Positions 2,665-32,412 are shown, numbered from the stretch's first letter. The stretch is 64,000 nt of DNA from an uncultured archaeon (GCA_964486045.1 CAZALK010000001.1:192001-256000), one strand, 5' to 3'. Made by a program: numbers and translations. Notes: a model not told the origin generated them from the letters alone.

Positions 2665-2679
2665 TATATAAAGAAAAAA
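2665..2679 (-). promoter_or_regulatory. T-tract/TATA promoter motif upstream of radA paralogue
   Basis: Sense strand TTTTTTCTTTATATA. Confidence 0.7.
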
Positions 2680-2884
2680 CAGAGATTAGAAAAAAGTAAT
2701 AATGCCAAACATCAGAAAAATAAGTTCCGGGGAATGGGAAAGAAAAAGTGTATCAATAAAAATTAGTCTTATTACTCTTTTCTAACATAAATAGATAAGG
2801 ATGGTACAAGTATAAAAATAAAAAATAAATTTTTGAATTATTTAATGTATCAAGATAATGGAAATAGCAATAAATTGAATTAAC

Positions 2885-3253
2885 CTACTTCTCGGACCAA
2901 AACTCCAATTCAAATCCATTTAAATCCAGTATTTTTAGGTTTTTACCCCAAGGTTGAATTTGTATTGTCTGTGTAATTTCTACGTTATTCTCTCTGAAAT
3001 GAGTGAAAAGTGATTCGAGATTGTCGACTTTCAGTAGAGGGTGAAAACCTAAAGGTTTTAAAGGTTGGTTTGCTTTTAGCAAGTTAAATCCTATCAAAGG
3101 ATTATGAGAATAATAAACATCTCCAAATAGACATTCCCCTTGATCATTTTTCAAATCACAACCTGATTTCCATCCTAAAATCTTTTTATACCATTCCATA
3201 GTTCTTTCAAGAGATACCACATGTAAAGTAATATCAATACTTTCAACTTTCAT
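2885..3253 (-). CDS. VOC/glyoxalase/bleomycin-resistance family protein
   Basis: LHVVSLERTMEWYKKILGW and QPWGKNLKILDLNGFELEF. Confidence 0.85.
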   Translation of the reverse strand: MKVESIDITLHVVSLERTMEWYKKILGWKSGCDLKNDQGECLFGDVYYSHNPLIGFNLLKANQPLKPLGFHPLLKVDNLESLFTHFRENNVEITQTIQIQPWGKNLKILDLNGFELEFWSEK

Positions 3254-3436
3254 ATTTGATGAAAAAAATTCTCATTTAAATAAATGATCTCAGTTCATGA
3301 TTTTTGAAATAAAATCTTCTAAAGTTAATTAAGTTATTAATAAGAGAAATTTTTATTAACAGTTAGTTGAAGAATGATTGTAAACTAGATTCTTTACAGT
3401 AGAACTTAATTTAATAGAAAAAACTAGCAAAAGAGC

Positions 3437-3817
3437 TTAATCCTCAACAAGAAAAGCAAGATTTTGTATATATTGTTCAGGAGAGATCCCATGTAGAAGA
3501 GCTTTATGCATTAATTTGATATTTATCTGCTCTGTATTGACTAATTTATTCTCTTTAAGCCCGTTTTTCAGAATATTTTCCAATATCTTTAAAACAGAGA
3601 AACTTGAATCTTTCATCATTCCAAAAAATCCCCCATACGCAATAAACATATTAGCCATCATTTCTAAGTCCTCTGTAGAAAAATGTTTATAACAGCTGCT
3701 ACAGACTACGCCAAGATTTATCCCAGCTTGATAGATTTGGGCACGATCGATGATTTCCCCATGACAAATTCCACACTTAACGGAGTGATCCGTTCTCCTA
3801 TCAGACTTTCCTATCAT
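3437..3817 (-). CDS. Hypothetical protein with N-terminal C4 zinc finger
   Basis: CGIC...CSSC; preceded by motif variant TTTTTTTATTTAAATA (3839-3854). Confidence 0.7.
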   Translation of the reverse strand: MIGKSDRRTDHSVKCGICHGEIIDRAQIYQAGINLGVVCSSCYKHFSTEDLEMMANMFIAYGGFFGMMKDSSFSVLKILENILKNGLKENKLVNTEQINIKLMHKALLHGISPEQYIQNLAFLVED

Positions 3818-3860
3818 GATCTCTTATTAAAATCAGAGTATTTAAATAAAAAATAAGGTA

Positions 3861-29874: not shown

Positions 29875-29890
29875 TTTTTTTCTTTATATA
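29875..29890 (+). promoter_or_regulatory. T-tract/TATA motif upstream of GNAT gene
   Basis: TTTTTTTCTTTATATA. Confidence 0.6.
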
Positions 29891-29934
29891 GAATTACAGA
29901 ATTAGAATTTAACCTTTAAAATGGTGATAAAATT

Positions 29935-31029
29935 ATATTACAAGTAGAACAAACGTTAGTTGAGCAAAAACAACTAGAAATAGATGTAATTGAAAAATCA
30001 ACAGAAATTCTTAAGTATCTTCACATTGGAATAAGTTTACCCATCCTTCCTGAGTTTCATAAGTATATCCTAAACGATTTAGAAGCTTATAATGCAAAGG
30101 CTTTGGTTTTAAGGGAACATATGAACACTACTAAATTCAGAAAGATGACTGAGGATATTGTAGGAATTACCCTTGTATATGAAGATGGAAGTGATACTTT
30201 ATTTTTCGGGTTTTTTGGGGTTTACGATCATAATTCGGAGAATGTTGAATATTTAGCCGATGAGTTGATTGAATATGCGCGAAAGAATGGATATCATAAG
30301 ATTCGCGGTCCGATAAACGTTCCTACCGTAATCTATGGATGGGGTTTTATGGCAGAAGGGAGTTGTAAAGAGCCTTTTGTCGGTTGTCCATGGAATCCAC
30401 CAATCTATCAAAGAATTTTCGCTGAGAAAGGATTTGATGTGCTTTTCGAGGAAGACAGGTATAAGATGGTTGCATTAAAAATGAATCCCTACAAGCTGAA
30501 GCATAGAGACGGATCGTTTTATGACTTTTCTGACTATGAAATTGTAAATCCTGGTCCTGAAGGAATGTATGAATGTAAGGAAGATTTCATTCGTCTGCAT
30601 AAAGATTATATGCCTCTGTCAGCCAAAATTACCCCTAAAATCGAAAATAACTTTAAGAATTTAGTAGATTTCATATTTTTCTACGGGCATCATGATATGA
30701 TGTGGATGGTCTATCACAAACCTACAGACGAAGCTATTGCCTGCGGATATGTCATTCCAAATCCGTTCTCAAAAAGTAAGAAAAGAAAATGGGTGGGACA
30801 ATGGAACTCTCTAAGCTTTCACGATTGGGTTGTCCATCCGGATCATAGGAGATCGGGAATTGCTATGCTTATGTATGGTCATACTTCCCTTCAGCTGATG
30901 TCTCCAAAAGGATCTGCTGAGTGGGGAAGCTTTCCGGTCGGAGCTGATAATATCGCGAATGCAAAAATGGCCCAAAAAATGCTCGGGAAAAAGAATAGAA
31001 CACACCTAATACTGCAACTTGAATTTTAA
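29935..31029 (+). CDS. GNAT-family N-acyltransferase (YghO-like tandem GNAT)
   Basis: FFGFF, KIRGP, PWNPP.Y, VHPDHRRSGIA. Frame is open upstream of the ORF-track start (30103) back to the stop at 29917-19; GGTGAT SD precedes ATT 29932/ATA 29935. Confidence 0.7.
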   Translation: MLQVEQTLVEQKQLEIDVIEKSTEILKYLHIGISLPILPEFHKYILNDLEAYNAKALVLREHMNTTKFRKMTEDIVGITLVYEDGSDTLFFGFFGVYDHNSENVEYLADELIEYARKNGYHKIRGPINVPTVIYGWGFMAEGSCKEPFVGCPWNPPIYQRIFAEKGFDVLFEEDRYKMVALKMNPYKLKHRDGSFYDFSDYEIVNPGPEGMYECKEDFIRLHKDYMPLSAKITPKIENNFKNLVDFIFFYGHHDMMWMVYHKPTDEAIACGYVIPNPFSKSKKRKWVGQWNSLSFHDWVVHPDHRRSGIAMLMYGHTSLQLMSPKGSAEWGSFPVGADNIANAKMAQKMLGKKNRTHLILQLEF

Positions 31030-31229
31030 ATCCTTATTTTTTTCTTTTTTATTTTGGTTTCTAATTAGTTGAATTATTTACTAACTGTTAACTAACTACT
31101 AACTTTTTTATTGTAATTTTAAGTTGTATTTGTCAATAAACGAGTAACTAACTATTAACCATATAAAATAGGTATAAATATCTCAAGTATAAAAAAAAGA
31201 AAATAAAAAAAGAAAGAAGATTTTTGGAT

Positions 31230-32285
31230 TTACATCATTAATTCTATTTCTACCGGTGTTTGTCTCACAGTAGAAAATGCCGAGAACAACCTTGTCTCAG
31301 CACCAGACACTACAGAATTAATAATGTGAGATACACTTTCTATACTATCGATAACTCCAATGCTTTGCCCTAAGAGAACCGCCCCTTCCTCAATATCTCC
31401 GTTATAAGACAGCTCATAAAACTTCATTTCATCCACCACGGAAGCCATCTTTTTCTCATCTTGCATTTTCTCTTCTTTGCTTGATACTAACGTATGACGT
31501 CGTGTAAAACTATTCTTAAGCACTCGAATTGGACCAAATAAACCGGTAACTAACTCCGTATCAGCCGATCCTGAATTCACCGCAATATTTTTAATATTCT
31601 CATGAAATTCACATTCTTTTGAGGTTATAAATCGAGAACCCATTGCGATTGCTCCCGCCCCTAATGATAGGGCTGAAGCGAGACCATCTCCATTTGCAAA
31701 TCCTCCACACGCAATTATTGGTATATCAGGAAGTTTTTTTCGAATCTCTTGCAATAGCACGAGAGTACTCACTTTTTCATAGGATTGATGACCACCACCT
31801 TCGATACCTGTTACTACTAGACCATCGACACCCATACCGGCACATTTCTCTGCAAAGCGTATATTTGGTACCACATGAAAATGTTTTATCTGAGAGGTTT
31901 CTCTAAGTTTATCATAGTACCTATTAAACATTAAGCGTGGTGATCCTGCACTTGTCAGTACATATACACACTGTTCTCTGATCCTCTGGTTTGCCATAAT
32001 AAATTGTGGAATTTTCCTACATAATTTAATAGCATCAGGTTGTAATCGAGCTGTCCGAATATTAAATCCAAACGGTTTATTGGTATGCTCAACCACATAT
32101 TCCATGTTTTTTTTCATTTCTTCTAAGCTGTTCTTCCCTAGAAGGTTAGTATGACTTAAAACACCAAGCCCTCCTGCTTCAGAAACTGCAACACTTAATT
32201 TTGTGGTGTAAAAAGGTCCCATAGGAGCACTTAAGATAGGATGCTGAACTCCTAACATCTTAGTTATTTCTGTTTCTATTCCCAT
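31230..32285 (-). CDS. Nitronate monooxygenase / FabK-like flavoenzyme
   Basis: PILSAPM, VSEAGGLGVL, GIEGGGH, IIACGG, AIAMGSRF, GQSIG; promoter motif T8-C-TTTAAATA at 32344-32360. Confidence 0.88.
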   Translation of the reverse strand: MGIETEITKMLGVQHPILSAPMGPFYTTKLSVAVSEAGGLGVLSHTNLLGKNSLEEMKKNMEYVVEHTNKPFGFNIRTARLQPDAIKLCRKIPQFIMANQRIREQCVYVLTSAGSPRLMFNRYYDKLRETSQIKHFHVVPNIRFAEKCAGMGVDGLVVTGIEGGGHQSYEKVSTLVLLQEIRKKLPDIPIIACGGFANGDGLASALSLGAGAIAMGSRFITSKECEFHENIKNIAVNSGSADTELVTGLFGPIRVLKNSFTRRHTLVSSKEEKMQDEKKMASVVDEMKFYELSYNGDIEEGAVLLGQSIGVIDSIESVSHIINSVVSGAETRLFSAFSTVRQTPVEIELMM

Positions 32286-32412
32286 TATTTTATCACATTG
32301 TAATTTTAATTAAATGTTTGATAGAACGAATTAGGCAAATCCATATTTAAAGAAAAAAAATAAGTATAGAAATTTAAGAGAGTAAGATTTAAGATTATAA
32401 TAAAAAAAATAT

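Follow-up and report, generated by a model that had tools for sequence, protein, structure and literature searches.

Across the left half of a window of 64,000 nucleotides from the genome of an uncultured archaeon, a recurrent element with the core T5-10-C-TTTWWAWA, in which a run of T and a C adjoin a TATA-like octamer, appears to supply the core promoters of a conserved, optional gene island of ~53 kb. We think it probable, though with no more than moderate confidence, that these T-run elements are read by a divergent homologue of the archaeal initiation factor TFB encoded in the island itself, so that this protein and its TFB recognition element (BRE) would form a private pair resembling a sigma factor and its promoter. 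The window corresponds to C1:192001-256000 of the assembly G000 (5.18 Mb in 45 contigs, which carry C-numbers; ~31% G+C) and the island to C1:171.5-224.4 kb; coordinates without a contig prefix are counted from the first letter of the window, and G- and L-numbers denote genomes and related loci. RadA/Rad51, Arf-type GTPase, WD40 and leucine-rich repeat (LRR) proteins, together with eight TFB genes, mark the source as an Asgard (Loki-type) archaeon, and homologues of the window proteins bear the names of Promethearchaeota metagenome-assembled genomes (MAGs). In the literature we found no description of T-run promoters or of a divergent TFB family in Asgard archaea, nor any paper on their transcription start sites.

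The initial annotation of the window, made from the sequence alone, had listed 15 copies of the element, and all of them were found at the places and on the strands it gave. In 11 of the 15, at least five T and then C (CC at 18049 and 27879) stand directly 5' of TTTWWAWW. Variant copies have A for C (3839), G for C (27902), an extra T (8651, 14928, and 15125) or a weak form, A-GTTAAATA (6132). With at most one mismatch, TTTTTCTTTWWAWA matched the window 31 times, against 7.24 +/- 2.53 matches (maximum 19) in 100 dinucleotide-preserving shuffles, and recurrence by chance is excluded. Genome-wide, 95 exact copies occur in 5.18 Mb, and the bin C1:192-224 kb, which is the left half of the window, ranks first among 188 bins of 32 kb with 21 near-matches (genome mean 5.6). 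The two commonest forms of the motif, TTTTTCTTTATA and TTTCTTTAAATA, are also the most over-represented non-simple 12-mers in upstream regions throughout the genome. The element had been described as confined to the left half; this holds inside the window, where relaxing the pattern slightly yields 19 copies to the left of 32.4 kb versus 6 on the other side (10 versus 1 when only start-codon-phased copies are counted), but not beyond it. The cluster extends leftward, spanning ~171.5 kb to 224.4 kb on C1, and the motif clusters again on C33 (13 near-matches in 15.9 kb), at C8:64-96 kb and at C16:106-110 kb.

The view that the T-run elements act as promoters is well supported, first of all by their directional spacing from start codons. 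We collected 67 loci (L013-L079, 1.05 Mb) around homologues of the island TFB-like gene in other MAGs and counted 355 motif copies, versus 79 of a reversed, non-complemented control. At 116 of 396 sites in these loci, an ATG opening an open reading frame (ORF) of at least 50 aa begins 19-27 nt after the TATA octamer, versus 8 in the mirror direction, and the spacing peaks at exactly 21 nt (47 sites). A second class, with 40-55 nt, comprises 90 forward and 9 mirror cases, so that the two classes pooled stand at 206 forward versus 17 mirror. Exact copies in G000 follow the same trend: 12/95 are phased in the forward and 2/95 in the mirror direction, the background being 4%. Since 21 nt separate the end of the octamer from the start codon, here the proxy for the start site, the TATA centre would lie ~26 nt before the start codon; a centre at about -26/-27 is the standard archaeal geometry for leaderless mRNA.

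Inside the window, nine copies lie 21-28 nt from the end of the TATA octamer to a start codon, as the initial annotation had reported: those at 3839, 5700, 6132, 8651 (only with a TTG start), 11327, 14928, 18049, 20003, and 27902. The remaining phased copies lie 42-58 nt before a start codon. The further statement that all copies except one point into a gene was slightly generous, because neither 15125 nor 29875 has an ORF of at least 30 aa within 130 nt.

Archaeal RNA polymerase terminates at oligo-T tracts, and a caveat had been raised from the outset that some copies might serve as terminators. On that account, the T-runs would mainly end the transcripts of upstream genes and would merely abut ordinary TATA boxes, the composite having no special meaning as a promoter. 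The caveat is fair for the copies at 3839, 11327, and 27902, which follow a co-directional gene, lie 7-55 nt past its stop codon and may have a second role as terminators. It fails for those at 5700, 5782, 18049, and 20003, which occupy divergent intergenic regions with no co-directional gene upstream, and it fails for the directional phasing to start codons. Termination would also leave unexplained why the C and the fixed junction with the TATA box are conserved, and why the motif is specific to islands when terminators are needed everywhere. The phasing in particular largely refutes the terminator account, which we regard as very improbable.

Comparison with relatives supports promoter function as well. 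We carried out phylogenetic footprinting of the window from 3.4 to 29.8 kb against five syntenic island copies from four genomes of the same genus, in which many of the encoded proteins are 30-50% identical. The place, strand and spacing of the motif are kept in front of the RadA paralogue, ORFs 3437, 4929, 11365, and 14673, the operon beginning at 20045 and the gene at 27938, while the flanks cannot be aligned. The copies stand before the first gene of a transcription unit, and it is before these first genes that the motif is kept in place and strand upstream of orthologues. Upstream of the operon-internal genes 22185, 22841, 23701, 27489, 14141, 3861, and 4576 we found no motif, and a ribosome-binding site (RBS) or an overlapping stop codon instead. 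Positional and strand enrichment, set beforehand as the test on which the promoter reading was to stand or fall, is therefore clear, both in the directional phasing and in the conserved place and strand.

The element belongs to the islands and not to the genome at large. Within 84 kb around the two TFB-like genes of G000 there are 36 motifs versus 18 of the reversed control, and 36% are phased. Away from these genes, the loose motif is no commoner than its reversed control (727 versus 760) and 8% are phased, which rules it out as a general promoter of the genome. Upstream of 877 genes with unambiguous starts, the average profile is an RBS signal with no phased TATA box, and the genome-wide excess of TATA boxes at the leaderless position over background is ~180, few of them with a T-run. 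Our attempts to derive a canonical BRE consensus for G000 gave none that was clear: the flanks of all TTTWWAWA sites were uninformative, 8-mer strand asymmetry revealed nothing clear, an expectation-maximization (EM) motif finder converged on compositional motifs, and the upstream regions of the 12 tRNAs, all that were found, share no common box. One promising candidate for a canonical element, AGGTTTAA, was rejected as largely RBS. The purine-rich BREs at 55021-55038 and 62896-62910, which the initial annotation had set against the T-run element, are accordingly no more than candidates. Outside the island, the T-run motif is often followed by a paralogue of an island gene, by a gene for a HerA-like ATPase or by one for a DNA methylase.

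The position of the T-run within the promoter corresponds to that of a BRE. In a logo of 397 unique sites the octamer reads TTT-(A/T)-(A/T)-A-T(69%)-A(61%), an A/T-rich TATA box of ~8 bp, and the six positions before it are T (64-100%), followed by C (86%); the two positions 5' of the required T4 are T at 64% and 79%. In every full copy, T-run and C run straight into the first TTT of the octamer, and their sequence departs from the purine/A-rich consensus of canonical BREs on the coding strand. We also noted in the 67 loci a weak pyrimidine-pyrimidine-pyrimidine-purine signal at +2 to +5 after the TATA box, for example TTTAAATA-CTCTGA, at the position expected of a downstream BRE, with which the first cyclin repeat would make contact.

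A candidate reader is encoded within the island. ORF 6175-7413 (+) specifies a TFB/TFIIB-family protein of 412 aa with a Zn ribbon, two cyclin folds, a helix of sequence MSTIQFQVK and a C-terminal extension of ~100 aa. Its divergence is such that it scores 18.1 bits against Pfam TFIIB (20.5 bits in the genome scan), below the curated cut-off of 23.6, and its match to Pfam Zn_Ribbon_TF is weak (E 0.016), while TFIIB chains in the PDB match it at E 0.002-0.007; it shares 16-24% identity with the genome's own TFBs. Residues C18, C21, C35, and C38 are invariant in 39 homologues, as in an N-terminal Zn ribbon. An AlphaFold2 (AF2) model computed from these 39 homologues has a core (residues 100-310) with a predicted local distance difference test (pLDDT) score of 85-94 and matches TFIIB/TFB chains over the Zn ribbon and both cyclin folds. 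Superposed on the P. woesei TFB core 1d3u_B, the AF2 core gives a TMt of 0.76 and a root-mean-square deviation of 3.3 A over 200 columns, and both cyclin folds are present.

This protein departs from the canonical TFBs in the helix-turn-helix (HTH) of the second cyclin repeat. In all eight canonical TFBs of G000 the repeat ends in VTEVT-[LIV]-R-[SNM]-R-x-K, and at the aligned columns the divergent family has MSTIQ-x-Q-V-K. Both R are thus replaced by Q, the resulting Q-x-Q is invariant in the family, the canonical helix is lost, and the MSTIQxQV stretch is the best-conserved part of the divergent protein. Adenine is the usual partner of Gln and guanine that of Arg, and the Q-x-Q helix would fit the run of A on the template strand. 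The recognition helix is known as the element that reads the BRE and sets the direction of transcription (PMC4581349). The term BRE, as first applied to the T-run, is accordingly plausible, because T-run and C sit exactly at the BRE place and the island TFB has a rewritten BRE-reading helix. From the recurrence, island specificity, directionality, spacing and conservation seen in the element, and from the TFB fold and changed helix seen in the protein, we infer that the divergent TFB contacts the T-run and that the island is co-regulated. A second divergent TFB, on C16, likewise stands beside motif copies; with two full divergent TFBs, one fragment of a third, eight canonical TFBs and three TBP loci, the set of basal factors in G000 is large for one archaeon.

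The divergent TFB and the island also seem to travel together. Of the 29 genomes sampled from one GTDB family, 22 gave a match to the factor at E<=1e-30, whereas 122 genomes from other families of the phylum gave none, and motif clusters adjoin TFB-like genes of more distant genera as well (G059 and G147). With these queries, G158 and two near-complete members of genus g11 yielded neither the divergent TFB nor the 1263-aa gene of the island operon, and the island therefore looks optional and appears to travel with its factor. A further genome, G009, has the operon gene and no factor match, on a contig of only 5.6 kb that makes it uninformative, and whole-genome motif counts across relatives were too noisy to correlate with the presence of the factor. 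The closed genome G168, from a neighbouring family, carries a syntenic island (C1:1709001-1789000, L109-L112). It encodes both helicases and a RadA paralogue that is 64% identical, and the 1263-aa and GNAT-DUF998 genes have homologues there too. The factor of this island (420 aa, 24% identical) has the helix TVYSHIK, and its leaderless-phased promoters have G-[ACG]-T before TTTAWAWA, some with T8-10-GC. Helix and upstream element thus both differ in this lineage, a covariation that we consider suggestive.

Several observations weigh against reading by the divergent TFB. The covariation of helix and promoter comes from two lineages only, and the side-by-side occurrence of factor and motif in many related genomes counts as one evolutionary event that they all inherited. 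The eight canonical TFBs and three TBP genes, or some other DNA-binding protein, could supply the reader, or the T-run could act through DNA shape or histone exclusion with no specific reader. The C33 and C8 clusters lie away from any TFB-like gene, and some off-island copies precede seemingly unrelated genes (encoding aspartate kinase, AIR-synthase-like and luciferase-like proteins), although these are probably chance matches. Finally, by crude gene calls, copies in tandem intergenic regions genome-wide lack strand bias (32 sense versus 36 antisense), and many copies outside the islands are for that reason probably background; we attribute the lack of bias to missed genes and to background copies, which in an AT-rich genome would dilute a small true set, and we regard start-codon phasing as the cleaner test.

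The most serious competing account draws on the same observations. It holds that the elements are real island promoters, with T-run and C read by a different activator or recruitment factor, or forming a structural A-tract that excludes histones or bends the DNA for a housekeeping TFB; the divergent TFB would then have another role, for instance as a co-activator like Sulfolobus TFB3. All of the evidence for promoters serves this account equally well, the link between protein and DNA being their co-location and the changed helix alone. The number of canonical TFBs and the C33 and C8 clusters suit it too, and precedent exists in TFB3 of Sulfolobales, which activates a DNA-damage regulon without itself binding DNA (PMC6101594). 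However, the near-invariant C, fused to the TATA box in a fixed register, argues for base-specific reading at the place of a TFB. A generic A-tract would not be confined to islands, and a TFB3-like role sits poorly with a protein that retains both cyclin folds and whose HTH is better conserved across the family than any other stretch. We consider this account possible and rather unlikely.

If the divergent TFB is the reader, initiation might proceed as follows. TBP would bind TTTWWAWA as a TATA box; the divergent TFB would bind TBP, read T-run and C through its Q-x-Q helix and so orient the complex; and RNA polymerase would start ~21-25 nt downstream, either at the start codon, giving a leaderless mRNA, or ~25 nt ahead of an RBS-led start codon, giving a short leader. 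The island would be switched on as a block whenever the divergent TFB is made, much as an alternative sigma factor acts through its -35 box in bacteria. For the TFB gene itself, an ordinary-looking box at 6081-6095 could permit start-up by a housekeeping TFB, and the degenerate copy at 6132-6146 could then provide self-reinforcement.

A stronger version of this proposal is a true switch of promoter code, evolved in one family of Lokiarchaeia-type Asgard archaea, in which a Q-x-Q TFB reads the T-run-C as an 'anti-BRE' and thereby drives an optional island for recombination, repair and DNA-transfer-like functions as a block; we hold it tentatively, at a probability that falls just short of even. 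Archaeal TFB paralogues with gene sets of their own are already established, and their promoter preferences are subtle and overlapping, so a plainly different element clustered with its targets would be another matter: what is new here is a clearly different sequence in the place of a BRE, together with a putative regulon clustered around a matching factor. If the proposal is true, archaea would have their first clear equivalent of an alternative sigma factor that comes with its own -35 box, and would be seen to partition transcription through a changed core promoter code, in the way that sigma factors allow bacteria to do. The lineage concerned is the one nearest to eukaryotes, in which the TFIIB family later diverged into factors specific to single polymerases. 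The T-run signature would, in addition, allow simple prediction of regulons in uncultured Asgard archaea.

By its content the island is one for DNA recombination and repair. It encodes a RadA paralogue (two further RadA genes lie elsewhere in G000), a Hel308/Ski2-like helicase, a DEAD/ResIII helicase, a DUF1922 protein, and FEN1-like, CoiA-like, RNase-H-like, and NYN nucleases, as well as a five-gene membrane operon that is headed by an HhH protein and includes the 1263-aa gene. Prenyltransferase-toroid proteins, a GNAT-DUF998 protein, an Arf-like GTPase and several Asgard-specific proteins complete the inventory, and many products have no family match. A scan for defence systems with PADLOC returned only generic helicase matches of the HamB/Cas3/PbeA type. 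A 41%-identical paralogue of the 1263-aa protein at C14:47254-51060 holds an in-frame TAG and may be a pseudogene or reflect a sequencing error.

One might ask whether such an island arose as a provirus or other mobile element that integrated into the chromosome, carrying a TFB and promoters with which it redirects transcription in its host. This idea concerns origin, not mechanism, and is compatible with reading by the divergent TFB. TFB homologues are encoded by Asgard viruses and by enigmatic mobile genetic elements (MGEs), according to bioRxiv 10.1101/2021.07.29.453957 and PMC13700489. The optional distribution of the island, which was not found in genus g11 or G158, would agree with mobility, as would its presence in two copies in G001 and the duplication of parts of it in G000. 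Against this, no relative of the factor turned up in 2.9 million IMG/VR viral contigs, the window has no tRNA gene, and the scanned island proteins include no integrase, capsid or replication hallmark, borders and repeats not having been searched systematically. The order of the genes moreover holds from genus to genus, and ordinary metabolic genes lie on either side of the island. A mobile origin thus seems improbable.

We now turn to the single copies, from left to right. The copy at 2665-2679 (-), T6-C-TTTATATA, lies 42-45 nt before the start of the RadA paralogue (1399-2622) and belongs to the leadered class; in L007 the motif occupies the equal place before a 79%-identical RadA orthologue, with unconserved flanks. 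The variant T6-A-TTTAAATA at 3839-3854 (-) lies 21 nt before the ATG of ORF 3437-3817. It follows directly on the stop of 3861-4583 and could act as a terminator too, and the L007 orthologue of ORF 3437 has the full T6-C-TTTATATA in its place. At 5700-5716 (-), divergent from the TFB-like gene, T8-C-TTTATATT stands 21 nt before the ATG of ORF 4929-5678 (weak M50B-like match) and is kept before its homologues in L006 and L009. A second, co-oriented copy at 5782-5796 (-), 82 nt further upstream and 103 nt from the same ATG, makes this look like a tandem promoter. A homologue of ORF 4929-5678, encoding 253 aa, follows an exact motif at 51-52 nt in three places in G000, C1:707778(-), C28:25330(+), and C41:2281(+), an arrangement suggestive of a repeated element or recent duplication, or else of a duplicate produced in assembly.

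On the other side of this divergent region, a purine-rich box with a TATA box, GCAAAGG-TTTAAAAG, lies at 6081-6095 (+), ~80 nt upstream of the TFB-like gene. The block AAAGGTTTAAAA-N4-AAACTCCTACC in this region is conserved in L006 and L009, and we regard 6081-6095 as the candidate ordinary promoter of the TFB-like gene itself. The weak variant T6-A-GTTAAATA follows at 6132-6146 (+), 28 nt before the ATG of the gene, in a region partly conserved in the same two loci. At 8651-8665 (+), T5-C-TTTTAAATA precedes a gene for an 889-aa protein with a prenyltransferase-like toroid domain, with an in-frame TTG at 26 nt and an ATG at 47 nt. The longest-ORF start of this gene, 8638, lies upstream of the motif and is therefore probably wrong, the true start being likely near 8692 or 8713. 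Paralogues of the 889-aa protein at C1:142 kb and C15:45 kb also bear the motif, and the homologue in L008 has T6-G-TTTAAATA.

T6-C-TTTATATT at 11327-11341 (+) lies 20 nt past the stop of the preceding gene and 23 nt before the ATG of ORF 11365-11976, and it is kept 22-23 nt before the ATG in L008, L010, L011, and L012. The copy at 14928-14942 (-) is followed after 24 nt by an in-frame ATG, that of the small ORF 14673-14924, and is kept before homologous small ORFs in L006, L010, L011, and L012; that at 15125-15141 (-) has only a short ORF (MSSK...) downstream. The small ORFs behind both copies (14673-15141) begin MSSK..., relatives likewise have tandem paralogous small ORFs, and the region looks like a family of tiny proteins under an island promoter. 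At 18049-18068 (-) stands T10-CC-TTTAAATT, and the gene for the Hel308/Ski2-like helicase has an in-frame ATG 26 nt further on. The true start of this 882-aa ORF is probably near 18022 and not at 18130, since the longest-ORF start lies upstream of its own promoter; in tblastn comparisons with helicase orthologues, alignments begin at residues 20-37 of the long ORF.

The five-gene operon (20045-27848) is preceded at 20003-20018 (+) by T6-C-TTTATAAA, 27 nt before the ATG of its first gene. This motif is kept 27-28 nt before the ATG in L006, L008, L010, L011, and L012, where the proteins are merely 30-37% identical. Beyond the operon lies an inverted pair (27879-27916, TATATAAAGGAAAAA-N8-TTTTTTGTTTATATA) that is conserved in four island copies of relatives (L008, L010, L011, and L012). 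Its plus-strand member, T6-G-TTTATATA at 27902-27916 (+), is followed after 21 nt by the GNAT-DUF998 gene (27938-29845) with its ATG, and the relatives have T5-A-TTTAAATA there. Its minus-strand member, T5-CC-TTTATATA at 27879-27893 (-), points toward the 3' end of the operon, has no ORF of at least 50 aa downstream and is a candidate promoter of an antisense or non-coding RNA. The full copy T7-C-TTTATATA at 29875-29890 (+) is followed 212 nt downstream by the next gene, at 30103 (TTG), and might drive a small RNA or a long leader, or the start may be mis-called. The rightmost copy of the cluster, T8-C-TTTAAATA at 32344-32360 (-), lies 58 nt before the ATG of a nitronate monooxygenase-like gene (31230-32285). 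As to the assembly, two short contigs, C40 and C45, have 59% G+C against ~31% in the rest and could be pieces of an rRNA operon or contamination, which is 7.8% by a CheckM-type estimate.

How do these promoters and their putative reader compare with known systems? In geometry they resemble the canonical archaeal core promoter, as seen in the P. woesei TFBc-TBP-DNA complex (1D3U/1AIS), with a TTTAWATA-type TATA box of 8 bp, an upstream element of ~6-7 bp that adjoins it and sets direction, and a TATA centre ~26 nt before the inferred start. The protein, with its Zn ribbon and two cyclin folds, superposes on 1d3u_B like a canonical TFB. By contrast, the upstream element is a pyrimidine run and C on the coding strand instead of a purine- or A-rich sequence, and the factor has Q-x-Q for R-x-R, an extra C-terminal domain of ~100 aa and a score below the Pfam TFIIB threshold.

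TFB paralogues specific to a niche or programme are established, in TfbA-G of haloarchaea and in Sulfolobus TFB2, which serves a cell-cycle wave, and extra TFB copies driving subsets of genes are a likeness to the system described here. Promoters that depend on one or another of these paralogues have BREs much alike, and for TFB2 similar BREs with different spacing are reported (bioRxiv 10.64898/2026.09.06.749720). The T-run system differs from these in its distinct sequence at the BRE position, in putative targets that lie in one cluster around the factor, and in the much greater divergence of that factor. TFB3 is a truncated protein without the DNA-binding cyclin core and works as a co-activator; unlike it, the protein here has both cyclin folds and a conserved HTH. 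What the two share is the tie of a TFB paralogue to DNA-transaction genes, those for recombination, DNA transfer and repair (PMC6101594). The TFBs of Asgard viruses and MGEs are likewise extra TFB homologues in Asgard genomes and are thought to redirect host transcription. The papers on them (bioRxiv 10.1101/2021.07.29.453957; PMC13700489) describe no promoter code, and the present family was not found on viral contigs and resides in a chromosomal, syntenic island without viral hallmarks.

In logic, the parallel is bacterial. Sigma factors differ in protein architecture and in the polymerase they serve, and no anti-factor was seen here. TFB HTH2 with the BRE and sigma region 4 with the -35 box are considered homologous anchors (PMC4581349). 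As with alternative sigma factors, for example those of the extracytoplasmic function (ECF) type, an initiation factor is encoded beside its putative regulon, and an altered HTH would be matched to an altered upstream element.

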